Shown: positions 1 to 39,700 of the stretch, one piece after another
How positions within the stretch are numbered: position 1 is the first letter of the stretch
Layout: every line of letters starts with the position of its first letter
Source of the DNA: Candidatus Scatovivens sp.
GTDB lineage: Bacteria; Bacillota; Clostridia; TANB77; CAG-508
Direction: 5' to 3'
Length of the DNA: 64,000 nt
Assembly: GCA_051891335.1 (NCBI GenBank)
Contig: JBJFFD010000022.1
Location: 3,527 to 67,526, forward strand
The notes under the pieces: generated by a model
Database searches by the model: none
Told to the model about the DNA's origin: nothing
Seen by the model: the letters and a program-made list of their open reading frames with translations, nothing else
Position numbers and translations under genes: made by a program

Positions 1-814
1 CTGTTCTTTTATCAGTAAAGCCTACTGGTTTTAATGGTCCATATCTTAATGTATCTATTCCTCTTTTAGCCATAATTTCTATTGGCATGCATCCTTCAAA
101 AATTTCTCTTTTTTCGAATTCATGTAAAACAACGACTTCTGCGTTTATTATCTCATTGTAAAATTTTTCGTATTCTTCTTTATTCATTGGTAAATTTATA
201 TAGCTTGCATTTTGAGCTTTAGTCCTTTCTTTCCACCTTTCTATTTCCTCTTCTTTTTCCCTTTCTTGCACATATCGGTCTCCAAAAAATGCTATATTCA
301 TATCAATCGAGTCTTTTTCAATAATTGGAGCTGCTGCATCAAAAAAAGATAAATTTTCTTCTCCTGTTAATTTTAAAATTTCATTAATAAGATTTTCAGA
401 CGTAAGAGGACCTGTAGCAATAATAACATTTTTATTTTTTGGTATTTTTGTAATCTCTTCTCTTATTAATTCTATATTTTCATTTTTTTGAATTTCCTCA
501 GTTACTTTTTTAGCAAATTCTTCTCTATCAACAGCTAATGCTTGTCCAGCAGGAACTTTAACTTCATCTGCAATTTTCATTAATTCAGATCCTAGAATTC
601 TTAACTCCTCTTTTAATAATCCACATGCATTTGTTATTTTATTAGATTTAAAAGAATTACTACAGACTATTTCAGCAAGATTTTCATTAGAGTGTGCTTT
701 TGAAAATTTATATGGTTTCATCTCATATAATTTTACTTTTATCCCTCTTTTTGCTATTTGAAGTGCAGCCTCACATCCGGCTAGACCTCCTCCTATAATA
801 TAAACTTCTTCCAT
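1..814 (-). CDS. trmFO: tRNA (uracil-5)-methyltransferase TrmFO/Gid, 5' portion (3' end runs off the window edge)
   Basis: Reverse-strand ATG at 814 opens MEEVYIIGGGLAGCEAALQIAKRG..., an FAD-binding GGGLAG Rossmann motif. The frame is open to position 1. It is absent from the ORF track because it is edge-truncated. Confidence 0.8.
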   Translation of the reverse strand, partial: MEEVYIIGGGLAGCEAALQIAKRGIKVKLYEMKPYKFSKAHSNENLAEIVCSNSFKSNKITNACGLLKEELRILGSELMKIADEVKVPAGQALAVDREEFAKKVTEEIQKNENIELIREEITKIPKNKNVIIATGPLTSENLINEILKLTGEENLSFFDAAAPIIEKDSIDMNIAFFGDRYVQEREKEEEIERWKERTKAQNASYINLPMNKEEYEKFYNEIINAEVVVLHEFEKREIFEGCMPIEIMAKRGIDTLRYGPLKPVGFTDKRT

Positions 815-901
815 ATTTATCTCCATTTTATAAAATATATCTATTTATATTTAACATCAATATATTATTATTTTCAAGTGCTTTTAAAATTTCATTTATT
901 C

Positions 902-932
902 GGGCAGACACAAGGCCTGCCCCTACAACATT
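902..932 (-). repeat. REP-like element (hairpin GGGCAG-N9-CTGCCC, then CCTACAACATT on plus; equals GTAG plus hairpin on minus)
   Basis: Inverted repeat read directly from the sequence. It shares the CCCTACA tail with about 9 other loci. Confidence 0.5.
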
Positions 933-985
933 AATTCATAATTATATGTATGGGCAATTTAAATCACCCACAAAAATAGATTAAA

Positions 986-1010
986 GGGCGATTAAATCGC
1001 CCCTACATAT
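986..1010 (-). repeat. REP-like element / probable terminator hairpin GGGCGATT-AAATCGCCC, then CTACA
   Basis: Perfect 8-bp stem immediately 3' of the stop of the 1016..2437 gene. Same CCCTACA tail as the rest of the family. Confidence 0.5.
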
Positions 1011-1015
1011 TTTAT

Positions 1016-2437
1016 TTAATCTTGTGAATGTTTTCCTTTTTTATTTTTTCTTTTTGTAAAATCGTTGTCATTTGCTTCAAATTGCATTTGTTTGTTTTCA
1101 AATATATCGTTTATATAATCTTTATTTTCTTCTTTTTCTTTTATTTCTTCTATATTATTGTTTTCCTCTTTTTCATCTTCTTCTTTATTATCATTATTTT
1201 CTTTTTCTTTCTTTTCTTTTATTTTTATTAATCCATTTTCTTTTAATATTTTTCTTTGTTTATAAGAGTTTATTGAAGATATAAAAGCTATTATAGAAAT
1301 AATTACAATGCTTGCAATTACAATTATTTTTTCTTTTTCTAGTTTATATTCATTTTCTATTGTTTCACCAATAATATTTGTAGAGTCTGATGTATCTTCT
1401 TTAACTTTATATTTAAACACTATTGTATAAATTGCAATTTCTCTTCCATCAGCATCTTTAACTGAAACAATCACTTCATTTTCATCTTTGTTAAATTCTT
1501 CTTCTCCTATAATTTCAAAAGTTCCACCTTCAAAATTTACTTCAGCATTAATTAATTCTTTTGCTTTTTCTAATCCTGATATTTCTTCATCTTCTATCCA
1601 TACTATATATCTATATACATCTGTACTAAATTCTGGCGAAAGTTTCATTCCTTTAACTTCTAACTTTGAAAGTCCTATTGTACTTCCTGAAGCTGTCGTA
1701 TCTGATGTGTCTGATGCAATATTCGGTGTTACCTCAGCACTTGCTACTTTCCTTACTACATTTACTTGGTATGTTTTTTGTGTTCCGTCTTCTGCTGTTA
1801 CTAATATCTTTACTACATTTGTTCCTTCTTTTAAGTTTGTGTTTCCTGTTACTTCATAACTTGCTTTTGAATCAGCAAGTGTTGGAATTACTGTAACTTT
1901 TGTCACATCATTTTCTACTGTTACACTATATCCACTTGTCTTAGAAGATTTAAATCCTGTAAAATCAACTGGTTGTAATACTAAATTTTTCAAGTTAGCA
2001 TTACTTGATTTTGTAGGTGTTGCTGGAGCAGTAGGGGTTTCAGGTTCTGCAGGAGTTTGTGCTGGTGCTGAAACTGAAATAGTTATTCCTGAAAAACTAG
2101 TTATTGTAGTTGAATCAGCATCTGTTATGCTCCCCTTTAATTCAACTTTTTTATTACCTTCTGATGAAGGTGTATATTGTGCAGAAAAATTTATTCCAAT
2201 ATTTCCTTCATAATTCTCAAGTTCTCTATTTGTTGCTAACGCTACACCATCAACATATAAAGTTAAATTCCATTGGACTGCACTTCCTGATACTGTTATT
2301 GTTTTAGTTTCTCCTGCTGTCATTGTAGTGTCGCAAGTAATATTTGCACTTGCTGCAAACGAATTGCATTTTAAACTAATAAATAGTAAAAAAAATATAA
2401 TACCTATTAGCACTTTTATTTTAAATTTTAATTTCAT
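1016..2437 (-). CDS. Secreted, membrane-anchored surface protein with Ig-like/cadherin-like beta-sandwich repeats and a C-terminal TM plus Lys/Glu-rich tail
   Basis: N-terminal signal peptide MKLKFKIKVLIGIIFFLLFISL. Repeated beta-rich segments (SANLKNLVLQPVDFTGF...YQVNV). A C-terminal hydrophobic helix followed by a KE-rich tail. Confidence 0.55.
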   Translation of the reverse strand: MKLKFKIKVLIGIIFFLLFISLKCNSFAASANITCDTTMTAGETKTITVSGSAVQWNLTLYVDGVALATNRELENYEGNIGINFSAQYTPSSEGNKKVELKGSITDADSTTITSFSGITISVSAPAQTPAEPETPTAPATPTKSSNANLKNLVLQPVDFTGFKSSKTSGYSVTVENDVTKVTVIPTLADSKASYEVTGNTNLKEGTNVVKILVTAEDGTQKTYQVNVVRKVASAEVTPNIASDTSDTTASGSTIGLSKLEVKGMKLSPEFSTDVYRYIVWIEDEEISGLEKAKELINAEVNFEGGTFEIIGEEEFNKDENEVIVSVKDADGREIAIYTIVFKYKVKEDTSDSTNIIGETIENEYKLEKEKIIVIASIVIISIIAFISSINSYKQRKILKENGLIKIKEKKEKENNDNKEEDEKEENNNIEEIKEKEENKDYINDIFENKQMQFEANDNDFTKRKNKKGKHSQD

Positions 2438-2491
2438 ATAACCTCTTTCCTGACGAGCTAATCTAACAACTCCTCACATTTTTATATTATC

Positions 2492-2525
2492 GGGTCGATG
2501 TGGTCATCGACCCCTACAACATTTA
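2492..2525 (-). repeat. REP-like element GGGTCGATG-N4-CATCGACCC, then CTACAACATTT
   Basis: Perfect 9-bp stem. The tail is identical to the copies at 59597 and 61472. Confidence 0.55.
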
Positions 2526-4232
2526 TAATCCTATACTTTTTATATCCATAACCTCTCTTTTTAATAAATATGAATCTCCGGTATTTATTGCTCCATCTTT
2601 ATTGACATCCGCTGAAATATAATAAATTCCATCTAAATTTCTATTCCCAACTATGGTTAATTTGATTAAATATGTATCTCCAGTATTTATTAGTCCATCT
2701 CCATTAATATCTCCATATTTTATTGCTGTATACTCTGTTCCATCTATTATAATTTTATATCCTGTTCCTATTGATTCTGCTGCCTCTGATATATCTGTTC
2801 CATCAGCTTTTTGTATTATTGCATTTGGATATGTTTCCTTAATATTTGAAACTGTAACTGATGGTGTCATTTTTAAGTTATTGCCTTCTATTTTAAAATC
2901 TAGCGTATTTACTGGTGGTATTACATTTGAAGTCGTTTCACATTTTACTAAATAACTTGCATCATTTAGAATTACTATTCTATCTTCGTAATTCCATTTT
3001 GCTTTTCCATTCTCATCTGTTCCTCTACTAGTTGCTACCTTTATTTTTAATGTTGCTCTGTTATTTTCAATTGATTGTACTGCTACAATTTGTCCTTTTG
3101 TTAGTTTTCCAACAATATTTCCTGATGCATCACTAACATTTAATGATGAAACATGAACTGTATTTACATAGTATAGTTCACCATCTGCTTCAGTTAATGT
3201 TGTGGGGAAACCTACTGGTACACCTGGCATATTATTATATACTGGTATTGTGAATACCAGGTTTGAATTAGCTAATCCATAGTTAGTATAATATTCCATA
3301 AGCATTCCAGCTTGGCTTGATGGATCTTGAATGTTAGTCATATATTGGTGATTAAAGAAATTTGAAGATGAATATACTTTTTCTTCATTATCTTTTAATA
3401 TTTCATTTCCTACTACATCAAATTTATAAAAATATTTTGTTGTCTGTCCTTGTGATATGTAGCCATTTTTTAATACTTTTTCTGCTCCATCTATTAATGC
3501 TATTTCTGGATTAGTCCAATTCATTTCTCTTGCTTTTTCTAATCCTCTTTCTACTGCTCCATCACCATCATTAGCTCCATAATTATAAAAATTATATAAA
3601 TTTTCATATCCTGGTACTTTTCCAAAAATTGCTTTAGGAGTATCTTTTGTTTTTCCTAATTCCTGAAATATTGTAACTATTATATGCATTGGACTAATTT
3701 CTGTTCTTGATGCTGCTTCTATTATTGTATCTGTATATTTTGATAAATATGTGTCACTAACCACACCTTGTATAATATCTCTGCTAATCTGCACCGAATT
3801 TGACAAATCTAAAAATTGATATATTGAATATTCAGTCAAAGAATTCCTAGGATCTAAATAATAATTTACTGTTTTTGCAGATGCGCAATAATATCCAGCA
3901 TCTCCAGTTCTTCCGCATATACAAAGCATTGTAGGATCCATTAAATCTACTTTTTTTATGGTATTTTTTAAACAAGCATTTTCTGCTGATGAAGATGTAA
4001 CTTCTGTCCAATCTATTCCTGTGTAATAAGCTTTAAAAGTCCAATTAGGATGCATTTCTTGTAATTTTTGTAAATATGGTTTATAACTTTCAGGAAATGA
4101 ATCTATCCCTACTTTTAAAGATTGAGTGTAAGTAGCACTCAGGGCTGAAAGACTTTCAGTCGGTATATATATATAATAAATTATATTAAATAATATTGTA
4201 AAAATTATTATTATTGATATAATTTTTTTCAT
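2523..4232 (-). CDS. Putative cell-wall glycoside hydrolase (glucosaminidase-like) with C-terminal type-I dockerin repeats
   Basis: Signal/TM N-terminus. The C-terminus carries two calcium-binding dockerin repeats: GDINGDGLINTGDTYLIK and ADVNKDGAINTGDSYLLK. The N-terminal catalytic domain resembles glucosaminidase/lysozyme-like hydrolases but was not identified precisely. Confidence 0.55.
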   Translation of the reverse strand: MKKIISIIIIFTILFNIIYYIYIPTESLSALSATYTQSLKVGIDSFPESYKPYLQKLQEMHPNWTFKAYYTGIDWTEVTSSSAENACLKNTIKKVDLMDPTMLCICGRTGDAGYYCASAKTVNYYLDPRNSLTEYSIYQFLDLSNSVQISRDIIQGVVSDTYLSKYTDTIIEAASRTEISPMHIIVTIFQELGKTKDTPKAIFGKVPGYENLYNFYNYGANDGDGAVERGLEKAREMNWTNPEIALIDGAEKVLKNGYISQGQTTKYFYKFDVVGNEILKDNEEKVYSSSNFFNHQYMTNIQDPSSQAGMLMEYYTNYGLANSNLVFTIPVYNNMPGVPVGFPTTLTEADGELYYVNTVHVSSLNVSDASGNIVGKLTKGQIVAVQSIENNRATLKIKVATSRGTDENGKAKWNYEDRIVILNDASYLVKCETTSNVIPPVNTLDFKIEGNNLKMTPSVTVSNIKETYPNAIIQKADGTDISEAAESIGTGYKIIIDGTEYTAIKYGDINGDGLINTGDTYLIKLTIVGNRNLDGIYYISADVNKDGAINTGDSYLLKREVMDIKSIGL

Positions 4233-4392
4233 TTACAATTTTCCTCCTATATTTGTAGAAAATAAAGAATAGTATATTTTAAGTTTTATATATTCGATAT
4301 TTTTCTACAAATATAGTATATATTAACCTTTTTTTTTAGTCAACAGCCCAATATTACATTTAGATTACAAATTATTAGATTGATAATTGTAT

Positions 4393-4417
4393 GGGTGATT
4401 TTAATCACCTACAGAAC
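4393..4417 (-). repeat. REP-like element GGGTGATT-TTAATCACC, then TACAGA
   Basis: Hairpin plus the CCTACA tail of the family. Confidence 0.45.
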
Positions 4418-4520
4418 AAAAGGGGTATGTTTAAAATTCTTTAACTTTTTAACAGACTCACATGCCCCGTCTTTGTTCGCACGCGAAAAATTGCTATGCA
4501 ATTTTTCTGTGGAATGTATT

Positions 4521-4558
4521 TATATTATAGGAAGTTAGGAGAACCTTCCTATAATATA
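4521..4558. repeat. Perfect 14-bp-arm palindrome TATATTATAGGAAG-N10-CTTCCTATAATATA (ATAGGAAGTT motif family)
   Basis: Read directly. The same ATAGGAAGTT/AACTTCCTAT arms recur at 20983-21012 and about 44160-44195. Confidence 0.5.
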
Positions 4559-4588
4559 AAAAATCTGGTTTAAAAACCAGATTTTTTG
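4558..4588 (-). terminator. Rho-independent terminator of topA (bidirectional hairpin AAAAATCTGGTTT-AAAA-ACCAGATTTTTT)
   Basis: Perfect stem flanked by A-runs and T-runs, directly 3' of the topA stop at 4590. Confidence 0.75.
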
Positions 4589-4589
4589 T

Positions 4590-6677
4590 TTATTTTTTTG
4601 CTTTTTTCTTTTTGGTTGTTTTTCTTGTGGTAGCTTTTTTCTTTGTTTCTTTTTCTATTTCATTTTTCTCATCTTCATTTTCTATATATTTTTCACCTTT
4701 TTTAGGCTTGTTCCAAGAAATATAATCACAACCATTATTAGGATTATTTTCACATATATAGTAATTTCTTCTTTTCTTTGTTTTTCGTACTTGAACAGTT
4801 CCTCCGCATTTTGGACATGGTACATCAATAGTTTCTACTATTGGTTTAGCATTTTGACATTCAGGATATCCTGGGCATGCCAAAAACTTTCCATACCTTC
4901 CATATTTAATTACCATCATTCTGCCACATTTTTCACATGGTACATCTGATACTTCATATTCAAGTTTTACATGTTCTAATTCTTTTTCAACTTTTTCTAC
5001 ATTTTCAGAAAATGGCCCATAAAAATCCTTAATTATTTTTTTCCAATTTTCTTTTCCTTCAGCGACTTTATCAAATTCTTCTTCAATTTGTGCGGTAAAC
5101 TCATAATTTATTATGTTTTCAAAATTTTCTACTAATAATTTATTAACAACTTTTCCTAATTCTGTTGGTATTAATTGCTTTTGAACTTTTTCAATATATC
5201 TCCTTGTTAATATTGTAGTTATTGTTGGTGCGTAAGTACTAGGTCTTCCTATTCCTTTTTCTTCTAGAGTTTTTACTAAACTTGCTTCTGTATATCTTGG
5301 AGGTGGTTCAGTAAAACTCTGTTTTGATTCTAAATTCCTATAAATTAATTCTTCTTTTTCTTTTAATTCTGGAATCTTTTCAAATTCTTCATTTTCTTCC
5401 GAATAATTATAAACACTTAAAAATCCTTTAAATTTCAAATTTTGCCCATTTGCTCTAAATTCATATTCATTTCCAACCACACTTACTGTTTTTGTATCAT
5501 ATACTGCTGAAGCCATTTGACTTGCTAAAAATCTATTATATATTAATTTATATAATTTATATTGGTCTTGAGTTAAACTATCCTTTATTTGTTCTGGTTC
5601 TAATTCTATATAACTTGGTCTTATAGCTTCATGGGCATCTTGTGCTTCTGATTTTGATTTATAGAATCTATTTTCATAATAATTAGCCCCATACTTTTCT
5701 GTTATTTTTTGTTTTGCAGCAATTCTTGCTTCCTCTGAAATTCTAACAGAGTCTGTTCTCATATATGTTATAAGACCTGTTTCACCTTTTCCAGGTAATT
5801 TAACTCCTTCATAAAGTCCTTGTGCTACTTGCATAGTTTTCTTAATTGCGAAGTTTAATTTTCTAGAAGCATCTTGCTGAAGTGTACTTGTCGTAAATGG
5901 TGGAGCTGGATTTTTCTTTCTTTCTCCTATTTTTATTTCATTTACAAAATATTTAGCTTTTTCTAGTTTTTTTAATATTTCATCTACTTCTTCTTTTGAG
6001 TGTATTTCTTGTTTTTTTCCGTCTTTTCCTATAAATTTGCATATAAAATCTGTTTTTGTTTTTTGGTCACATACAGTTAAATTTATGTTCCAATATTCTT
6101 CTGGTTTAAAACTTTCTATTTCTTCTTCTCTATCAACAATTAATTTTACTGCAACTGATTGAACTCTACCAGCAGATAACCCTCTTTTTACTTTTTTCCA
6201 TAAAAGTGGGCTCATTTTATATCCTACTATTCTGTCTAGTACTCTCCTTGCTTGTTGTGCATCTGTTAAATTTAAATCTATTGTTCTAGGATTATCTATA
6301 CCATTTTTCACTGCATTTTTAGTTATTTCATTAAATGTTACCCTACACATACTTTTAGGATCTAAGTTCAATATGTATGCAAGATGCCATGCAATTGCTT
6401 CTCCCTCGCGGTCAGGGTCAGTTGCTAGATAAATTTTTTTTGCTTCTTTCGCATCTTTTTTCAATGAATTAATTAATTTTGCTTTTCCTCTTATGTTTAT
6501 ATATTCTGGTTCAAAATTATTTTCAATATCTATACCCATTTTTGACTTAGGTAAATCTCTTATATGCCCCATTGAAGCAACAACTTTGCTTTTTCCTCCC
6601 AAAAACTTTTTTATTGTATTAGCTTTTGCTGGAGATTCCACTATCACTAATTTATCTATCATTATACTTTCTCCCAT
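4590..6677 (-). CDS. topA: DNA topoisomerase I
   Basis: TOPRIM N-terminus (IVESPAKANTIKKFLG...). Active-site region (RTDS). C-terminal Cys4 zinc ribbons (CEKCGRMM...CPGYPEC, CPKCGG...C). Confidence 0.95.
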   Translation of the reverse strand: MGESIMIDKLVIVESPAKANTIKKFLGGKSKVVASMGHIRDLPKSKMGIDIENNFEPEYINIRGKAKLINSLKKDAKEAKKIYLATDPDREGEAIAWHLAYILNLDPKSMCRVTFNEITKNAVKNGIDNPRTIDLNLTDAQQARRVLDRIVGYKMSPLLWKKVKRGLSAGRVQSVAVKLIVDREEEIESFKPEEYWNINLTVCDQKTKTDFICKFIGKDGKKQEIHSKEEVDEILKKLEKAKYFVNEIKIGERKKNPAPPFTTSTLQQDASRKLNFAIKKTMQVAQGLYEGVKLPGKGETGLITYMRTDSVRISEEARIAAKQKITEKYGANYYENRFYKSKSEAQDAHEAIRPSYIELEPEQIKDSLTQDQYKLYKLIYNRFLASQMASAVYDTKTVSVVGNEYEFRANGQNLKFKGFLSVYNYSEENEEFEKIPELKEKEELIYRNLESKQSFTEPPPRYTEASLVKTLEEKGIGRPSTYAPTITTILTRRYIEKVQKQLIPTELGKVVNKLLVENFENIINYEFTAQIEEEFDKVAEGKENWKKIIKDFYGPFSENVEKVEKELEHVKLEYEVSDVPCEKCGRMMVIKYGRYGKFLACPGYPECQNAKPIVETIDVPCPKCGGTVQVRKTKKRRNYYICENNPNNGCDYISWNKPKKGEKYIENEDEKNEIEKETKKKATTRKTTKKKKAKK

Positions 6678-6695
6678 TAATATCTGTTTTTTGTA

Positions 6696-6724
6696 TTTTA
6701 ATTCATAAATATATTTTTTGCAAG
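6696..6724 (-). promoter_or_regulatory. Candidate sigma-A promoter for topA (TTGCAA-17nt-TAAAAT)
   Basis: The -35 TTGCAA is at 6719-6724 and the -10 TAAAAT (minus-strand sense) at 6696-6701, with a 17-nt spacer. It lies just upstream of the topA start. Confidence 0.45.
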
Positions 6725-6779
6725 TACTTTATAAAATTGAAATCTTGTATTTTCCTATTTAATTGCAAAAGAAGAAGTT

Positions 6780-7874
6780 TTACTTCTTCTTTACTCTTAC
6801 AATTCCATTATTTACAGTTATTGTATCTTTTATTCCTAGCTGTTCTATTACACTATATGGTGTGTTTTTCACAAATTCTTGGCTGTTTGAAATATTTATA
6901 TCAACAGTTTTATATTTTGAATTATCTATTATTTTTTTTAGTTGGCTTAAGTCATTTTCTGTATATGTAACTGTTAATCCATAATAATCAAAATAGTTAT
7001 ATTTTGTACCTGTTGGCTCAGATATCAATGAATATTTTCTAATATACTCACTAATATCTATTGGATTTAATCCTATATAAGACATTGCCTCTGAATCTCC
7101 AACAACATAAGTTTCTGTTGAATCAAAGTAATAATAATCATCTAATTTTACTAAATTCCACATTTTTTCTTCGCCTTTTACTATATAAGATTCTATATTA
7201 ACTGCTTGAAACAATATTTGAGCTGTTTTTGCATATCCATATCCAACTTTTTTAGTTGTATTAAAAAATCCATAGTAAGCACTCTGTTCTTTTTCCGAAG
7301 AGTCATCTCCATATTTACTATTTTGTCCTATCCATTCATAAATGTATTTTTCCTTTTCAAAATCAAATTTATCATTGCATTCTTTTTTTATTTCAGCTAT
7401 TTTTTGTTGTACTTTCTTTACCCTATTTTCTATGTTTTTTTCAGTTGTATCATAATAGAAAAATTCTATTCTTATATCAGATCCGCTATTAGAGTATGTA
7501 TATCCTCTTAAGTTTATTAGTTCAGGGTGATCTAGCATTAAACAATCCAATATTTTTATTATAGTTTCTTCATTACATATTACAATTTTGCTGCTTTTAT
7601 TATTTTTTATTTCATTAAAAATCTCTTTATATAAAATTTTTTCTTCATCATTTAATTCATTATTATAATAATATTGGTTAGACATGTATAAGTCATTAAC
7701 ATACCACTCAGATTGTTTATCTATTTTAGAACTTATATATAAATCTTTTTGTTCTATAAATGTTTTATAAACAAAAAATATAATTATTACTATAAGTATA
7801 AGTTTAAATAGAGAAATTTTTCTTTTTTTCTTCATTAGCTTGTCTACCTTTCTAAAAACGGAAAAAATCAGCAC
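6780..7874 (-). CDS. Hypothetical membrane-anchored protein
   Basis: Long ORF with an N-terminal TM helix (LFKLILIVIIIFFVY). No recognised domain. An AAGAAGAAG/CTTCTTCTT hairpin sits at its 3' end. Confidence 0.5.
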   Translation of the reverse strand: MLIFSVFRKVDKLMKKKRKISLFKLILIVIIIFFVYKTFIEQKDLYISSKIDKQSEWYVNDLYMSNQYYYNNELNDEEKILYKEIFNEIKNNKSSKIVICNEETIIKILDCLMLDHPELINLRGYTYSNSGSDIRIEFFYYDTTEKNIENRVKKVQQKIAEIKKECNDKFDFEKEKYIYEWIGQNSKYGDDSSEKEQSAYYGFFNTTKKVGYGYAKTAQILFQAVNIESYIVKGEEKMWNLVKLDDYYYFDSTETYVVGDSEAMSYIGLNPIDISEYIRKYSLISEPTGTKYNYFDYYGLTVTYTENDLSQLKKIIDNSKYKTVDINISNSQEFVKNTPYSVIEQLGIKDTITVNNGIVRVKKK

Positions 7875-11209: not shown

Positions 11210-12682
11210 TTATTTATTTTCTCCTAAAAGTTCTTTAACAATTTGCCTTTCATCAAATGGTATTTTATTTCCATTTATTTCTTGATAAGGTTCATGCCCT
11301 TTACCTGCTAAAATTACTATATCTCTTTTAGTTGCCATTTTTAAAGCTTCCTTTATTGCATCTTTTCTGTCTTCAATTATTACATATTTTCCTTTTGTTT
11401 TTTTGATTCCTTCTTCTATTTCTTTAATTATATCCATTGGTTTTTCAGTTCTTGGATTATCTGTTGTTATTATAGCAAAATCTGCAATTCTCCCTACAAC
11501 TTCTCCCATTAAAGGTCTTTTTGTTCTATCTCTATCTCCTCCACATCCAAACACACAAATTACTTTTCCTTTTGTGTATGTTTTTACAGCTTCTAATATA
11601 CTTTCTAAGCTTTCTGCTGTGTGAGCATAATCAATCATTATTGCTAATTCTTTATTATTTGCAATCAACTCACTTCTTCCAGGAACTGTTATTTCTAATA
11701 AAGCTTCTTTTATTTGTTCAACTGTTGCGCCATATTTCAAGGTCACTGTTATTGCAGCTAAGCTATTATATACACTAAATCTTCCTGGAATATTTACTTT
11801 TATTCTCTCGTTTCTATCTTTTAATTTTACTTTATAATCCACACTTTTATTAGTTATAGTTATATCTTTTGCAAGCATATCTGAGAAATTATCTATTCCA
11901 TATGTTTTGAATTCACAATTTGGAGCACTTGCCATTATTTTTCCAGCTTTAAAATCATCAGCATTTATAACTCCCTGTCTACACATTTTAAATAATTTTG
12001 CTTTTTCATTGAAATACTCTTCAACACTTGCATGTTCTTTTTCACTAATATGATCTTTATAAAAGTTTGTGAAAACTCCTACCTCAAATTCACATCCATC
12101 AACTCTATTTAATTTCAAGCTTTGTGATGATACTTCCATAACAACAATATCTATTTTTTCTTTTACCATTTTAGCAAAAATTCTTTGTAGTTCTAAACTA
12201 TCTGGTGTTGTTCTTGTACTTGCACCTAAGCTTTTATCTCCAATATAATTTGCAATTGTTCCAATTAATCCTACTTTTAATCCAGCTTTTTCTAATATTG
12301 TTTTTATCATATATGTCGTAGTTGTTTTTCCCTTTGTTCCTGTTACTCCAATTAATCTTAATTTTTTAGATGGATTTGAATAAAAATTACTTGCAACCTT
12401 TGCCAAAGCTTTTCTAGTATCTTCTACTATTATTACAGTTACATTTTTTGAAATTTTAACTTTCTTCAAGTCCGCTGATAAATCTAGCATAACAGCCACA
12501 GCGCCATTTTCTATTGCTTCATTTATAAATTCGTGTCCATCAAACTCGAATCCTTTAATAGCTACAAATAGACTTCCAGGTGTTACATATTTAGAATTAT
12601 TTTCAATATTTGAAATTTCTATGTCTAGGTCTCCCTTAGCTTTATAATTTTCTACTCCTTTTAAAATTTTAATAAGTTCCAT
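11210..12682 (-). CDS. murE: UDP-N-acetylmuramoyl-L-alanyl-D-glutamate--2,6-diaminopimelate (or L-Lys) ligase
   Basis: Mur ligase P-loop GVTGTKGKTTTT. MurE-type DYAHT motif (MIDYAHTAESL). About 490 aa. Confidence 0.9.
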   Translation of the reverse strand: MELIKILKGVENYKAKGDLDIEISNIENNSKYVTPGSLFVAIKGFEFDGHEFINEAIENGAVAVMLDLSADLKKVKISKNVTVIIVEDTRKALAKVASNFYSNPSKKLRLIGVTGTKGKTTTTYMIKTILEKAGLKVGLIGTIANYIGDKSLGASTRTTPDSLELQRIFAKMVKEKIDIVVMEVSSQSLKLNRVDGCEFEVGVFTNFYKDHISEKEHASVEEYFNEKAKLFKMCRQGVINADDFKAGKIMASAPNCEFKTYGIDNFSDMLAKDITITNKSVDYKVKLKDRNERIKVNIPGRFSVYNSLAAITVTLKYGATVEQIKEALLEITVPGRSELIANNKELAIMIDYAHTAESLESILEAVKTYTKGKVICVFGCGGDRDRTKRPLMGEVVGRIADFAIITTDNPRTEKPMDIIKEIEEGIKKTKGKYVIIEDRKDAIKEALKMATKRDIVILAGKGHEPYQEINGNKIPFDERQIVKELLGENK

Positions 12683-12771
12683 TTTTCCTCCTTAAGACTA
12701 TATCATTCCAAATGGTATTATATAGTAAAATTTTTAATTTGTATAGTATTTTTCTTTATTAATATTTATTA

Positions 12772-12839
12772 ATTATTATATAATTTATTCTTTAATTTAA
12801 TATAAAAGTGTTAAATTAAAGAATAAATTATATAATAAT
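12772..12839. repeat. 29-bp perfect inverted repeat with a 10-nt loop (ATTATTATATAATTTATTCTTTAATTTAA / TTAAATTAAAGAATAAATTATATAATAAT)
   Basis: Read directly. Lies in the adh-murE intergenic region. Confidence 0.6.
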
Positions 12840-12993
12840 ACTTTTTCATTTTATATTCTAATTCCTATTATGTCAATTATACTAATAAAACAAAGGTGGC
12901 ATTTTTAAACACTTTTGAAATTAACGTATTGGTTGTATAATAGTTATTAGAAAATTATACAATGTAAGAAAACAAGGCAAAAGCCTTGTTTTC

Positions 12994-14145
12994 TTACATT
13001 GCTTCTTTATATAATTTTACAAAATCTTCTTTTGTTACTTCTCTTGGATTTCCTGGTTTACATGGATCTTCCATTGCTTTTTCAGCAAGCATTTCCAAGT
13101 CTTCTTCTTTTCCTCCAACATCTGAAACAGTTTGAGTTATTCCTACTTTAGCAGATAATTCTTTTATTTTTCCAACAAATGTATCTATTACTTCTTCTTT
13201 ACTAAAATTACTTGCATCAATATCTAATCCTTTTAAAATTTCTCTAAATCTTTCATAGCAAACTTCTCCATTAAATCTCATAACTGTTGGAAGCAATATC
13301 GAATTTGCAATTCCATGCGGCGTATCATATACAGCTCCTAGTTGGTGTGCCATAGAGTGTACTATTCCAAGACCAACATTTGAAAATCCCATTCCAGCAA
13401 TATATTGTGCCATTCCCATTTTTTCGATTGCGACTTCATCTTTTTCATTAACAGCTGCAGGTAAATATTTAAATATCATTTGAATTGCTTTCATATGAAA
13501 CATATCTGACATATCGTTTGCACCTTTTGTTATATATCCTTCTACTGCATGCGTCAAAGCATCCATTCCTGTCGCTGCGGCTAAAGCTTTTGGCATTGAA
13601 GCCATTAGTTCAGAATCTATAATTGCTAAAATTGGTATATCATTTGGATCTACACAGACCATTTTCACTTCTCTTTCTTCATCTGTTATTACATAATTTA
13701 TTGTAACTTCTGCTGCTGTTCCTGCTGTAGTTGGTAATGCTATAATTGGCATCCCTCTATTTTCAGTATTAGATAGTCCGTTTAATGATTTAATGTCGCA
13801 TCTTGAAGGATTAGTCATTACTATTGAAATTCCTTTTGCTGTGTCTATACTTGATCCTCCTCCTACTGCAACAATAACATCTGCTCCTGAATTTTTGCAA
13901 GCTTCGACTCCATCTGTAACATTTTTTATTGTAGGATTTGGTTTTATTTCTGAATATAATGAATATTCAATATTTGCTTTTTTTAGTTCTTCTTCAACTT
14001 TACCTGTTACACCAGCTCCTATTAGAGCTTTATCAGATACTAAAAATACCTTTTTAAATCCTCTTTTTTTAATTTCATCTGCAAGAACTTCTCTTGCCCC
14101 TTTTCCGAAATATGATGTTTCATTTAAAACTATTTTTTCAGACAT
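12994..14145 (-). CDS. Iron-containing alcohol dehydrogenase (FucO/DhaT-like)
   Basis: Fe-ADH signatures: GGGSSIDTAKG, conserved His cluster, 383 aa. Confidence 0.85.
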   Translation of the reverse strand: MSEKIVLNETSYFGKGAREVLADEIKKRGFKKVFLVSDKALIGAGVTGKVEEELKKANIEYSLYSEIKPNPTIKNVTDGVEACKNSGADVIVAVGGGSSIDTAKGISIVMTNPSRCDIKSLNGLSNTENRGMPIIALPTTAGTAAEVTINYVITDEEREVKMVCVDPNDIPILAIIDSELMASMPKALAAATGMDALTHAVEGYITKGANDMSDMFHMKAIQMIFKYLPAAVNEKDEVAIEKMGMAQYIAGMGFSNVGLGIVHSMAHQLGAVYDTPHGIANSILLPTVMRFNGEVCYERFREILKGLDIDASNFSKEEVIDTFVGKIKELSAKVGITQTVSDVGGKEEDLEMLAEKAMEDPCKPGNPREVTKEDFVKLYKEAM

Positions 14146-14326
14146 CTTATCAACTCCTTTATTTTTATTTTTTCTTTAAAAACGAAAAAAATACATATAA
14201 TTTTTCATACGTATTTTATATTTAATAATATATTTTTTCAATAGATTAATTATTAATTTGTTAACATTCTTTTTTATACTGTAATATTATATTAATGAAA
14301 TTATAGTATAAAGAGGTGTTTTAAAT

Positions 14327-14782
14327 ATGTTTCCTTATTTTTTTAATACAGCAAAAGCTCATATAAAAGGTGGCAAAGAATATCCAAACATAAATGGTAT
14401 TGTATATTTTAGAGAAACCAAAAATGGAGTTGAACTTACTGCTAATATTAAAGGATTACCAGAGTCTAAAGGTAATTGTAAAGGAAGATTTTTTGGATTT
14501 CATATACATGATGGAACTTCTTGTGACGGAAATGCTGAAGATGAATTTGCAAGTAGCGGTTCTCATTATAATCCTAAAAATTGCCAACATCCATTTCATG
14601 CAGGAGATTTACCTCCATTAATCGAAACCAACGGTTCTGCATATATGAATATTTTATTAACTAAATTTAAAGTTTCTGATATCTTAAACAAAGTAATTAT
14701 TATACATGAAATGCCAGATGATTTCACAACTCAACCTAGTGGAAATTCTGGAAAAAAAATCGCTTGCGGTAAAATAGTATAA
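14327..14782 (+). CDS. sodC: Cu/Zn superoxide dismutase family protein (apparently cytoplasmic, no signal peptide)
   Basis: Motifs GFHIHDGTSCDG, HYNP...HAGDLPPL. RBS AAGAGG upstream. Confidence 0.8.
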   Translation: MFPYFFNTAKAHIKGGKEYPNINGIVYFRETKNGVELTANIKGLPESKGNCKGRFFGFHIHDGTSCDGNAEDEFASSGSHYNPKNCQHPFHAGDLPPLIETNGSAYMNILLTKFKVSDILNKVIIIHEMPDDFTTQPSGNSGKKIACGKIV

Positions 14783-15098
14783 AAAAAGTGGACTTTTTTA
14801 TTAAAATGTACAAATACAGATTATAATTATAACTATCATAAGAATAAAACATTTTATAAAAAAACTTTAAAAGAATTTGAATATTTAAAAAATAGATAAT
14901 ATATTGCAGATTCAATTAATCCTGCAATAGCTCCACCAATAAAAGTGCCTATACCGAATGGTTTTGGTGAACTAATAAGAGAATTAATTACTCCAACAAC
15001 ATAATTTCATTTTTTTACAAATTTAATTTTTTCCAGTATTTTTTTTAATTTATATAGCATATTAAAATTATAATTTATTATTATATGAGGTAAAATGT

Positions 15099-15758
15099 AT
15101 GAATTATATTTATAATTTTCAAGATAATATTGAGTATTCCTCTTTTAATTCTAAGGCAAAAAATATATTAAATTGGATAGAAGAAAACAGAAATATTTTT
15201 GACTGGGCAAAAGATCCTAATGCATATGAAATGGTAAATTTATTTTTGTTTGGAGCAAAGTATTATCATGAAGGAAAGAATATTAATATTGATACTCTTA
15301 CAAAAATGTGGGATATTCGATCTCAAGACTTTAAGAATTGCAATATTTCTCCAAATAATTTTGTTTATAATATTTGCCAAGATAGTTATAAATCTGCTCT
15401 TATTGGAAAAGTACTGATAAATGATGAAAATTACCACCACGCTTTAAGAAAAATGGCTGGAATAGGTTTATATTTAAAGCAACACCAAAGAGATTTTGGG
15501 CAAGTTTCTTATAATAATCCAGAAGAGTTATTACAATTATTAAAATGTTCTAGTACATTAAAAACTTTTCATCCTGACTTATTTGATAAATATGCATTTA
15601 AAGAAAATATTGATGTTTTATGCAAATTACAACTAGAACATGAACTACCTAACGAAATTATCCAATTTATTAAAAACGCTAAAAGTCAAATATATTCTCA
15701 TACTACTAAATTTGAATCTTCAAAAGATACTAAACCTAGCAAAATAGAATTTACTTAA
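15099..15758 (+). CDS. Hypothetical protein
   Basis: 219-aa ORF with no recognised domain. Preceded by GAGGTAAAATGTATG. Confidence 0.45.
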   Translation: MNYIYNFQDNIEYSSFNSKAKNILNWIEENRNIFDWAKDPNAYEMVNLFLFGAKYYHEGKNINIDTLTKMWDIRSQDFKNCNISPNNFVYNICQDSYKSALIGKVLINDENYHHALRKMAGIGLYLKQHQRDFGQVSYNNPEELLQLLKCSSTLKTFHPDLFDKYAFKENIDVLCKLQLEHELPNEIIQFIKNAKSQIYSHTTKFESSKDTKPSKIEFT

Positions 15759-15799
15759 ATATTTAGGTAAAAGTAAATATATTTATAATATATTTACTT

Positions 15800-17770
15800 T
15801 TACTCTGCATATAAGATAACCTTTCCTCCTGAGTTTATTTTTACTCCTTCTTCTGGTATTTGCTTGTATATTTTTGATTCACTGTTTAAGTTTTCGCCAA
15901 TTATTTCTATTTCAAAGTATTGTAATTTTTCTTTTACTTCTTTTATTGGCAAATCTTTTACATTCTCCATAATTATTTCATTTTTTTCTTCCTCTTCTTT
16001 TTTTAAATCCAAATATGGCAAAACTTCTTTTAAAATTGCTCCAGCAACTGGTGCTGCGACACTTCCTCCTTGGTGTCCTCCCTCACCTGTTGGATTATAA
16101 AGTGTTATTAATATTGCAACTTCCGGATCATCTGTATTTGCAACTCCTATAAATGAAGTTACATATTTCCCCGTATTTACTCCATCTTCTGATGTTCCTG
16201 TTTTTCCACCCACTTGATATCCTGCCACTTTAGCGTTTTTTCCGAGTTCCCTCTGATGCAACTGAATTCATCATACTTAGTATTTTTTGTGAAGTATCTT
16301 CTGATATTGCTTGAGCTCCAAACTCTGGTTCTATTTGTGTTACTTCTCCGGTTTGACTATTTATGATTTCTTTTACTATTCTTGGTTTTACATATACTCC
16401 TTTATTTGCAATTGTTGATACCATTGTTATCATTTGAATTGGAGTTACTTCAAATCTTTGACCAAATGATATTGTAGCAAGTTCTACTGGACCAACCTTT
16501 TCTTTTTTTAGAAAAATACTATTTGCTTCTCCTGATAAATCTATTCCTGTTTTCTGTAATAATCCAAATTTTTTTAAATATTCATAATATTTAGAAACTC
16601 CTATTTGTTGACCTAATCCTATAAAAACAGGATTGCAAGAATTCATAAGCGCTTGTCTTAAGCTTTGTGAACCGATGTGGTCTATAATATCTCCAGCATT
16701 TTATTCTTACTCCTGCTATTTCTATTCCCCCTGTACAGCAAAAAGCTCCTTCTTTGTCAGGTTCGGCAATTTTTTCTTCTACTGCTGCTGAAGCAGTTAC
16801 CAATTTGAAAGTAGATCCTGGTTCATATGTATCTGATATAGCTTTATTTCTCCACATTGCTTGCAAAGCTGTATTTTTTTCTGTTATTTCCATAGAATCC
16901 CATAAGCTTTTAAGTTGTTCATCATTTATTGTATATGGAGAATTTAAATCATAAGATGGATATGTTGCCATTGCTAAAATATCTCCATTTTTAGGGTTCA
17001 TTATTATTACATTTCCTCCATCTGTACATATATTATCAATGCAAGCTTCTTCTAAAAATTTTTCTGCTATTGATTGTATTGTCATATCAATTGATAATAC
17101 TAAGTCATTTCCATCTATTGGGTCTATATAACTTTCTCCTTCTTCTCCTAAAATATTTCCCTTAGCATCTGTTTGCTTTTCTATTTTTCCGAATACTTCC
17201 CTTTAATATCTCATCATACTTGGCTTCTATTCCATCTAGTCCCTGATTATCACTACCGCAAAATCCAATTACTTGTGATGCTAATCTTCCATACGGATAA
17301 TATCTTTTTGTATCTTCATCAATATTTATTCCTTGTAGTATATTATTTTCTTGCATCCACATTCTTAATTCATCTGCTTTTTCTTTATCTATTTTTTTTA
17401 CTATATTCTCAATAGAAGTTTTTTTGTTTATGCTCTTATACACTTTTTCATACTCTAATCCAAATATACCACTTAAAGCTTTTGCAACTTTTTCTTTATC
17501 ATCTTGCGAAATATTAACAGGATTAACTGTTACAGTATATACCGTACTACTTACTGCTAAAATATTTTTCCCTGTCGCATCATATATAGTTCCTCTTTTT
17601 GAATTTACTTTTCTGCTAGAACTTATTTGTTCATTTGCTAATCTAGTAAGCTCATCACCTTGTACAAACTGAACTACTATAAGTTTTATTATTACTGCTA
17701 AAAAACCTATCAAAAAAAACAGAATTATCCATCTAGTTCTTTTCTTTAATTTTAATAAACCTTTATCCAT
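15800..17770 (-). pseudogene. SpoVD/FtsI-type class B penicillin-binding protein broken into four ORFs by three single-base frameshifts (possible sequencing artefact)
   Basis: Collinear fragments: N-terminal TM plus dimerisation domain (17162-17770); transpeptidase STFK motif (16591-17085); SCNPVFIGLG segment (16230-16646); KTGT motif plus PASTA-like tail (15800-16261). Frame changes near 17190, 16680 and 16255; the last is an extra A in an A6 run. Confidence 0.7.
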
Positions 17771-39121: not shown

Positions 39122-39411
39122 TTATCTTATTGAATCCATATACCATTTTTTTTGCGCTAATTTTTCTTGTACTCCATTTAATGCTTCTCCAAATCTTTGA
39201 AAATGGACTATTTCTCTTTGTCTTAAATATTTTAATACATCTACTACATCTGCATCTTCTGCACATAAATTAATTAATTTTTCATATGTTGCTCTTGCTT
39301 TTTGCTCTGCAGCCAAATCCTCTGTTAAATCCGCTACCGGATCGCCTTTTACCGCTATTGTTGTTGCTGTCCATGGTAATCCTGCTGCTGCTTGAGGATA
39401 TACTCCTAATC
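39122..39411 (-). pseudogene. cotJC: cotJC (Mn-catalase family spore coat protein), 3' half, separated from its 5' half by an inserted element
   Basis: The frame is open from the junction: IDNKHTPHGLGVYPQAAAGLPWTATTIAVKGDPVADLTEDLAAEQKARATYEKL...REIVHFQRFGEAL matches the C-terminal half of CotJC/Mn-catalase. No start codon of its own. Terminator hairpin at 39092-39120. Confidence 0.8.
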
Positions 39412-39609
39412 CATGTGGTGTGTGTTTGTTATCTATCCTAAATAAGAAAATTTATAATAACTACTTATTTTGTACAAGAAATTCTGCGCCTACATTTTTT
39501 GTAGGCATTGTTTATTACCTTACAACTTTATTCTGATTATAATCGATTGTTCAGAAAAAACAAATTTAATATGAAGAAGAATTAAATAATTATGAAATAG
39601 AATTATAAA

Positions 39610-39645
39610 AGACAAAATGGAGAAATTATGCTCTCCATTTTGCCT
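39610..39645 (-). terminator. Terminator hairpin AAAATGGAGA-N9-CTCCATTTTG downstream of the element membrane-protein gene
   Basis: 10-bp stem plus a T-run in minus-strand sense. Confidence 0.55.
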
Positions 39646-39700
39646 TGATTTTTTAGTCTTTGTTTTGCATTTCGTTCATTTTATTTCTAAATTCTTCAAG

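Follow-up and report, generated by a model that had tools for sequence, protein, structure and literature searches.

Here, we describe a small mobile element that splits the spore-coat gene cotJC between codons 100 and 101 in a 64,000-nucleotide stretch of DNA from Candidatus Scatovivens sp. (contig JBJFFD010000022.1, positions 3,527 to 67,526; this whole stretch is referred to as the window). The interrupted gene lies downstream of cotJA and cotJB in a cotJA-cotJB-cotJC operon, and the element carries its own large serine recombinase (LSR) gene. The locus is laid out as follows.

39122–39415, minus strand: 3′ part of cotJC (codons 100–196 and the stop), holding the remaining 96 codons, 3.8 kb from the 5′ part
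43213–43551, minus strand: 5′ part of cotJC; host codons 1–101 occupy 43250–43551, and the element arm follows
43551–43799, minus strand: cotJB, upstream operon gene (PF12652 and PF11007 for cotJB and cotJA together)
43775–43999, minus strand: cotJA, upstream operon gene (families as for cotJB)
39416–43254, no strand assigned: cotJC-intervening element, 3,839 bp with the core counted once
39391–39438, no strand assigned: putative attL, with host B half-site at 39391–39413, crossover TG at 39414–39415 and element P′ arm at 39416–39438 (TGGTGTGTGTTTGTTATCTATCC)
43230–43277, no strand assigned: putative attR, with element P arm at 43230–43252 (GGATAGATTCCAAACCCACCCCA), crossover TG at 43253–43254 and host B′ half-site at 43255–43277
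40806–42371, plus strand: LSR of 521 amino acids, TnpX/TndX-like (DUF4368) type, catalytic Ser10

The two junctions share the 5-mer CCATG, as a reading of the window from its sequence only had proposed. The left junction is atactcctaatCCATGtggtgtgtg, with CCATG at 39411–39415, and the right junction is aaacccaccCCATGatctgtata, with CCATG at 43250–43254. An identical run of at least 5 bp passes through a random aligned pair of window positions with a chance of 1.6%. Beyond the right junction, the frame of the cotJC 5′ part continues for 11 codons into the element arm and then stops (VGLESIQKEFK, then the stop codon). When 39122–39415 is joined to 43255–43551 on the minus strand, with a single copy of CCATG, the product is a 196-amino-acid Mn-catalase/CotJC open reading frame (ORF) that matches Pfam PF05067 (Mn_catalase) with E=2e-52. 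Intact orthologues with an identical YYTDHGLGVYPQ segment align colinearly with this rebuilt gene and in the same register. The rebuilt protein reads AYYTDHGLGVYPQ across the joint, and this 12-mer is identical in the intact orthologues L001, L002 and L032. (L numbers are labels of the compared contigs; all of the sequence comparisons rest on metagenome-assembled contigs.) In silico, the predicted excision leaves no scar, keeps the CotJC frame and reconstitutes an intact gene, with GGATATACTCCTAATCCATGATCTGTATAATAAGC as the predicted attB joint and GATTCCAAACCCACCCCATGTGGTGTGTGTTTGTTATC as the predicted attP joint. Element and window are similar in base composition (25.5% and 26.1% G+C, respectively).

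Uninterrupted relatives of the gene provide a direct comparison for the rebuilt site. A protein search with the rebuilt CotJC returned uninterrupted genes of 94–95% amino-acid identity. The contigs that carry them, L088 (where cotJA and cotJB also precede the gene) and L089, match the window's DNA at about 90% identity. In BLAST alignments, L088 2368–3118 corresponds to window 43999..43250, and L088 3114–3395 corresponds to window 39415..39134. The two pieces overlap by exactly 5 nt, CATGG, and both L088 and L089 break against the window at the 5-mer. The joined flanks are colinear with both empty sites, indicating that recombination was conservative, with no duplication. The attB predicted from sequence alone, acagatCATGGattagg, lies inside an 80-nt perfect match to L088 that is centered on the crossover. 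The junction coordinates and the attB of the sequence-only reading were therefore correct, and its prediction of a scar-free, in-frame repair of CotJC is upheld in silico by the rebuilt ORF and by its colinearity with the empty sites. The 80-nt run spans positions 250–329 of the rebuilt cotJC (window 43255–43302 plus 39384–39415) and is the longest perfect match to L088; for L089, the longest perfect match to the rebuilt gene is 41 nt, and the site is covered there too. Identity over 80 nt, at about 90% overall, may reflect extra synonymous-site constraint on attB, or merely the most conserved protein motif.

The recombinase has the domains expected of an LSR: Resolvase (PF00239), Recombinase (PF07508) and Zn_ribbon_recom (PF13408) all score above cut-off, and the match to DUF4368 is weak (28.6 bits versus a cut-off of 25). 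Ser10 lies in MKVAIYCRLSRED (motif YCRLSRED). Among structures in the PDB, the protein matches TP901-1 integrase, the N-terminal domain of TnpX and, weakly (E=6e-6), A118 integrase; it also matches a PHROG integrase family with E=2e-103. Its closest named relative is a plasmid-borne tndX, with ~32% identity over the full length. Close relatives were absent from the phage collection (<45% identity) and from the plasmid collection (≤42%). No phage structural, conjugation, transposase or tyrosine-integrase genes were found in the element among its ORFs or by profile searches, nor was any mobilization gene recognized, and no long direct repeats were found. The sequence-only reading had assigned the junctions to a serine recombinase rather than to a tyrosine integrase with its long repeats, and the intact LSR, the palindromic attP (see below) and the lack of long direct repeats agree with that assignment. 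Misassembly into a chimera, target duplication by a transposase or the action of a tyrosine integrase is hardly conceivable as the origin of the junctions, and only the short length of the repeat speaks for any of these. The same junctions are seen in more than 60 independent assemblies, the element has no ORF for a transposase or tyrosine integrase, and a target duplication would leave a 5-bp insertion, whereas removal of one copy of the 5-mer gives perfect colinearity with the empty sites.

Recombinases that are 79–93% identical to this one are abundant in gut metagenomes, and a single protein cluster has over 1,000 members. Halves of cotJC flank the LSR gene in about 60 contigs; they are broken at the same residue, in the same orientation, with inserts of 2.9–10.6 kb. 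Distant LSR relatives (45% identity) are not in cotJC within 9 kb. From the 79–93% identical relatives we extracted 50 attL and 49 attR sites, and all 49–50 sites have a single target codon. The same 5-mer and arms recur in 47 of 50 attL and in 49 of 49 attR. On the element side, conservation ends ~23 bp from the core (arms GGATATATTCCAAACCCACCCCA and TGGTGTGTGTTTGTAAACTATCC), beyond which the lineages diverge; the host side varies like coding DNA. Because element-side conservation stops at about ±23 bp, attP can be put at ~48 bp. Further inside, even those left ends that have diverged retain the motif AACTACT around +43 to +52. L099, L102, L132 and L135 have a variant form of the right end, with no ParE/antitoxin-like gene detected in the two that were checked (L099 and L132). 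Just outside the conserved arm, this variant reads AAAGCAGGATTAGGAGATATTACAAACC, which resembles the cotJC site sequence inverted, and it makes attR a longer palindrome, AAAAAGCAGGATTAG...CTAATCCTGCTTTTT.

Canonical serine-integrase sites comprise an imperfect palindromic attP around a non-palindromic dinucleotide (PMC3783163, PMC5595907). The ends of the cotJC element form a 27-nt inverted repeat, 81% complementary, in which 39416 pairs with 43252 and TG (43253–43254) is the center. Reconstruction of attP yields an imperfect 48-bp palindrome about this non-palindromic TG, with 23 bp per arm. We scored symmetry as the number of complementary positions between the 23-bp arms, trying every possible center. 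In the window and in four other lineages, the score is 19 of 23 about TG and at most 11 at other centers. Random pairs of window positions give 6.85 ± 2.27 complementary positions of 23, and one pair in 200,000 reaches 19 (p ~5e-6). By comparison, attB is asymmetric coding sequence, with 7–8 of 23. The sequence-only reading had described partly symmetric arms of 5 bp in the register CCACC/CCATG/TGGTG. The symmetry it noticed is real and larger than supposed, with 23 bp per arm, but that register matches poorly. The actual dyad axis falls on TG (39414–39415 and 43253–43254), as CACCCCA-TG-TGGTGTG, with 23 bp to each side.

Natural variation within the 5-mer allows the crossover to be located more closely. 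In L109, L110 and L113, attL reads CCGTG and attR reads CCATG. The empty cotJC of L028 shares 98.5% identity with the rebuilt L109 gene and reads ...ACAGAT CAC GG CTGGGG... at this position. On the coding strand, the sites compare as follows.

L028 empty site, coding strand: host GAT-CAC-GG
L109 attR, coding strand: host GAT-CA, then element T-GG
L109 attL, coding strand: element ...CCA-CA, then host C-GG

Because attR of L109 holds CAT and its attL holds CAC, versus CAC in the empty L028, the crossover lies within TG (CA on the coding strand). In the whole set, the third base of the 5-mer is A in 49 of 49 attR, where it is element-derived, and G in 3 of 50 attL, where it is host-derived. The variation at attL matches the CAT/CAC codon variation among intact orthologues. 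TG itself is present in all 99 sites (50 attL and 49 attR). The comparison thus shows strand exchange at the 2-bp TG overlap, not across the whole of CCATG. The other three bases are shared only in that the left half-sites of attP and attB agree there, and on this comparison they are dispensable. Insertion in a fixed orientation follows from the non-palindromic nature of TG. That the crossover lies at the CC end of the 5-mer (39411–39412 and 43250–43251), or that all of CCATG is the required overlap, seems very improbable. It is true that CC is common to every attL/attR pair, and that all five bases are identical in the window. But with a crossover at CC, attR of L109 would retain the host CAC, where CAT is seen and attL keeps CAC; attR in general should vary like host codons, where A is invariant; and the symmetry of attP about CC is 8 of 23, versus 19 of 23 about TG.

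The arms of attP contain a second shared feature. GGATA is found 20–24 bp from the center in both attP arms, and 15–19 bp from it in the left attB half. In the host B half-site of attL (39391–39413), GGATAT corresponds to Tyr-Pro codons. In the A118/LI integrase model, attP of ~50 bp is symmetric about the central dinucleotide, and attB has its distal (zinc-ribbon) motif moved inward by 5 bp (PMC3783163). The cotJC attP resembles that model in its symmetry about a central dinucleotide and possibly in the shift of a distal motif in one attB half, bearing in mind that the similarity to A118 integrase itself is weak. We regard the 5-bp shift of GGATA as suggestive only.

Taken together, these data lead us to assign a probability of roughly 85% to the reading that the CCATG junctions are attL and attR of a small non-phage element, inserted by its own LSR into codon 100 (His) of cotJC. 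As judged from the aligned sites, integration is at TG inside codon 100, in a single orientation and with conservative joints. The LSR would recognize the ~48-bp attP, with its two 23-bp imperfect inverted arms around TG, and the asymmetric attB in cotJC. If the same enzyme recombined attL with attR, attP would leave on a 3,839-bp circle and cotJC would again be uninterrupted, with no scar; such excision is predicted for the window copy. The LSR probably excises together with a small partner, for which the best candidate is orf44, one of several further features within the element.

40584–40718, plus strand: orf44, 44 amino acids here and 41–44 in the family, directly upstream of the recombinase gene
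42473–42685, plus strand: orf70, no family hit, in about half of the related elements
42701–42901, plus strand: antitoxin-like ORF, 66 amino acids, overlapping the toxin ORF; probable toxin-antitoxin pair (42701–43220)
42879–43220, plus strand: ParE/RelE-family toxin (PF05016, E=4e-11)
39701–40330, minus strand: cargo, a 209-amino-acid hydrophobic protein with no family hit, unique to the window copy among 25 elements
39459–39506, plus strand: left-end module, comprising copy A of a 20-bp repeat (39459–39478) and then a terminator-like hairpin (39488–39506)
40765–40784, plus strand: copy C of the 20-bp repeat, inverted, within the leader of the recombinase gene, 21 nt upstream of its ATG

For orf44 and the cargo, the comparison comprised 25 non-redundant elements. 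With tblastn, orf44 was detected in 23 of these; in the remaining two, its position is taken by a small ORF of divergent sequence. Differences among the orf44 sequences number 627, 569 and 1446 at codon positions 1, 2 and 3, and this concentration at the third position argues that orf44 is a real coding gene. It is a candidate directionality factor or regulator. Searches of Pfam, NCBIfam, PADLOC and PHROG gave no matches for the cargo protein, orf44 or orf70, and Rfam and tRNA scans of the region returned nothing.

The 20-bp inverted repeat AACTACTTATTTTGTACAAG is perfect between copies A and C, and copy C is kept in nearly all related elements. Copy C can pair with a direct copy B (40744–40760) around a TATAAT box; in L083, the corresponding hairpin has −21 kcal/mol and z=−4.7. 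About half of the elements have copy A, ~44 bp in from the left end and followed by the plus-strand terminator-like hairpin; this copy has T where the complement of copy C has C, equivalent to a U:G wobble on plus-strand RNA. Copy A could belong to a small antisense RNA against the recombinase leader, or be a repeated operator. Between the left-end module and orf44 lies a cargo slot, whose contents vary. In L084, for example, the cargo (383–4674) includes a Septu PtuA-like AAA ATPase (PADLOC E=1e-29) beside a 292-amino-acid protein, and an Apyc1-like protein of metallo-beta-lactamase fold; the smallest elements, of 2,915 bp (L106 and L108), have no cargo.

When would excision take place? In B. 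subtilis, cotJ is known to be expressed in the mother cell, under sigma-E. By analogy with skin, SPbeta, gin and vfbin, the element may be excised in the terminally differentiating mother cell, such that CotJC is made there and the spore keeps the element. Every tested LSR element that lies inside a mother-cell sporulation gene excises during sporulation (PMC5595907, PMC5025042, PMC4191935). On the strength of this analogy, we give excision during sporulation about even odds, roughly level with the view that the element is purely selfish. In the latter case the sites and the LSR would be the same, the conserved stretch of cotJC would be a safe landing site, excision would serve only for transfer, and carriers would be without CotJC. 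This is a serious contender, though we would put it somewhat below an even chance. In its favor, the toxin-antitoxin module would enforce retention, and the nearest named relatives of the LSR are transposon resolvases (TndX), not phage or skin enzymes. Other elements are found in other conserved cotJC motifs (see below), as expected if conservation rather than function drives targeting. Against it stand the characterized elements just cited, all of which excise in sporulation when tested, and the state of the two cotJC halves, which are open and of full length wherever they are whole on the contig and without further insertion.

The history of the family bears on how much weight the open halves can carry. 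Distances between LSRs and distances between host CotJC proteins are uncorrelated (Mantel r=−0.02, p=0.49; L090–L156), with divergence of up to 12% for the LSRs and up to 36% for host CotJC. The LSRs of L090 and L093 are 0.8% apart and their host CotJC 22% apart, whereas L096 and L134 share the same CotJC but differ in cargo and, by 11%, in their LSRs. These observations suit a selfish element. Long vertical inheritance under selection, with co-divergence of LSR and CotJC, was considered and is rejected by the Mantel result. The element lineage instead appears to be horizontally mobile, with recent, repeated transfer between species in spite of having no obvious transfer genes. Since horizontal transfer would make the elements recent arrivals, open cotJC halves say little about selection to keep them so. 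We also considered a test of co-decay, in which broken LSR genes would go with broken cotJC. It was dropped because the apparent premature stops in the C-part proved to be insertions at codons 137–145, not decay. In L146, L148, L152, L154 and L155 the LSR gene is in two frames, by real frameshift or assembly error, and in L146 the left arm is degenerate too.

Several points weigh against the reading given above, either in its core or in the sporulation timing attached to it. The excised-circle attP joint CCAAACCNACNCCATGTGGTGTGTG has no matches in JGI metagenome contigs and none in IMG/VR. An element-free allele of exactly this organism was not found by exact protein look-up in a 15-billion-protein collection, where neither the rebuilt CotJC nor the truncated N-fragment has an exact entry. 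The right half of attB has no clear GGATA counterpart, confining the 5-bp shift to one attB half-site. No directionality factor was identified in the element, orf44 and orf70 having no homology to known ones; the nearest named relatives, TndX and TnpX, act without any such factor. When the conserved sequences upstream of orf44 and the LSR gene were aligned and inspected by eye, in what is AT-rich DNA, no convincing sigma-E, sigma-K or SpoIIID promoter was recognized, as would suit a selfish element; with no sporulation promoter called, the proposed timing comes from analogy. Finally, cotJ mutants of B. subtilis have mild phenotypes, and a permanently split cotJC might therefore be tolerated.

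It is also unlikely that the element is a dead relic, with nonfunctional sites or LSR and cotJC a fixed pseudogene. The failure to find an attP or attB joint for the window organism (JGI, IMG/VR and the protein look-up) would fit with this, as would the frameshifted LSR genes of the five relatives listed above. But the window LSR is full length, with 521 amino acids like its relatives, both arms are near the family consensus, both halves of cotJC are open, and the same sequence was recovered from an independent read set (L081, 100% over 3,879 bp); SRR30616851 is a run with an identical copy. We considered whether the 3,879-bp contig L081 might itself be the circular form, and rejected this: it equals window 39190–43068 at 100% identity, attL included.

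Codon 100 is not the sole site of insertion in cotJC. A second hotspot lies at codons 61–62 (GCTAATTC/TTCTG, the slash marking the break), around window position 43360, and is used by other LSRs with their own sites. Examples are L083 (~3253 onward), L122–L124 (~11590–16316) and L135 (~3239–7326). The element at this hotspot in L083 encodes a 535-amino-acid recombinase (3350–4957, minus strand). One attP-like sequence for codons 61–62 is GGAACATA-TTC-GTATGTTCC, and the core in L135 is TTCTTCAG. In about 20 of 66 contigs the two elements occur together, leaving cotJC in three pieces. More breakpoints are seen in the 3′ part of cotJC, in the conserved DLAAEQKAR motif (around window 39290–39305): at ~117 in L083, ~5999 in L122, ~148 in L154 and ~6243 in L146. 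L083 and L122 break after GCAGCAGA, L154 8 nt further and L146 13 nt further, with unrelated sequence beyond each. These breakpoints are probably further insertions, in which case some genes are interrupted three times.

Such observations invite a broader, and at present doubtful, proposal: that cotJC of low-G+C gut Clostridia is a multi-lock developmental gene. Unrelated LSR cassettes would occupy codon 61–62, codon 100 and codons 137–145 of the 590-bp ORF, two or three per gene (as in L083 and L122). Each would consist of a minimal 2.9–3.8 kb unit (recombinase, 42-amino-acid partner, toxin-antitoxin pair) and swappable cargo, including defense genes. All would be excised in the mother cell to yield CotJC, with the spore germ line keeping the cargo, and recombinase output might be tuned by a small antisense RNA from the opposite element end.

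The att architecture described here is textbook for LSRs, and elements in sporulation genes are known (skin, SPbeta, vfbin, vrin, gin, yin); the finding will not surprise a specialist. The TnpX and TndX elements, Tn4451 and Tn5397, recombine at a GA dinucleotide, insert at several targets, do not require a directionality factor and encode mobilization functions. Their recombinases are of the DUF4368 type, a C-terminal domain that the cotJC LSR matches weakly, and like the cotJC element they are small and non-phage. The cotJC element differs in its TG crossover, its single site in cotJC and the lack of a recognized mobilization gene. Among elements in sporulation genes, skinCd of Clostridioides difficile, an element of ~14 kb, is comparable in several respects. 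It is clostridial, non-infectious and inserted in a mother-cell gene (sigK), with LSR CD1231 and factor CD1234 (PMC5025042). It shares with the cotJC element a Ser10 LSR, a ~22-bp imperfect inverted repeat plus short common motif, and restoration of an ORF on excision (predicted for cotJC). It differs in its target and its 19 genes, and in that the 72-amino-acid CD1234 has been shown to be under sigma-E/SpoIIID control (PMC5025042), whereas the cotJC element is 3.8 kb long and orf44 is a candidate partner only. The gin element (GirC/GirX), which interrupts gerE in Bacillus cereus ATCC 10987, is likewise a non-phage gene-intervening element in which a small partner gene adjoins the recombinase gene (PMC5595907). 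Its geometry, with an imperfect repeat of 27 bp and a short consensus that ends, on the 3′ side, in the cleavage dinucleotide, is like that of the cotJC element, with a 27-nt repeat and CCATG ending in TG. It differs in its size (28.6 kb), its three recombinases, its host class (Bacilli), its target (gerE) and its 9-bp consensus, and its excision has been demonstrated both in vivo and in vitro (PMC5595907). In Laceyella sacchari, cotJC is also interrupted, by a skin-like element with a SpoIVCA-like recombinase (bioRxiv 10.1101/2022.02.25.481979). Laceyella belongs to the Bacilli, a different class from the window organism, and the likeness is by description only. That single sentence is what the literature offered on cotJC as a target; nothing was found on the clostridial family.

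These results add cotJC to the mother-cell sporulation genes that are interrupted by recombinase elements. They also provide attP, attB and the crossover, well defined by computation, of an uncharacterized LSR that is widespread in gut Clostridia, with TG pinned by natural variation. The attB lies inside a conserved coding motif, and such sites are raw material for integrase tools. Elements of this type can be as small as 2.9 kb, appear to have spread horizontally, and may be several to one small gene. If excision is indeed timed to sporulation, they would be among the smallest gene-intervening elements known to us, and convenient ones for studying how recombination is coupled to the sporulation programme.

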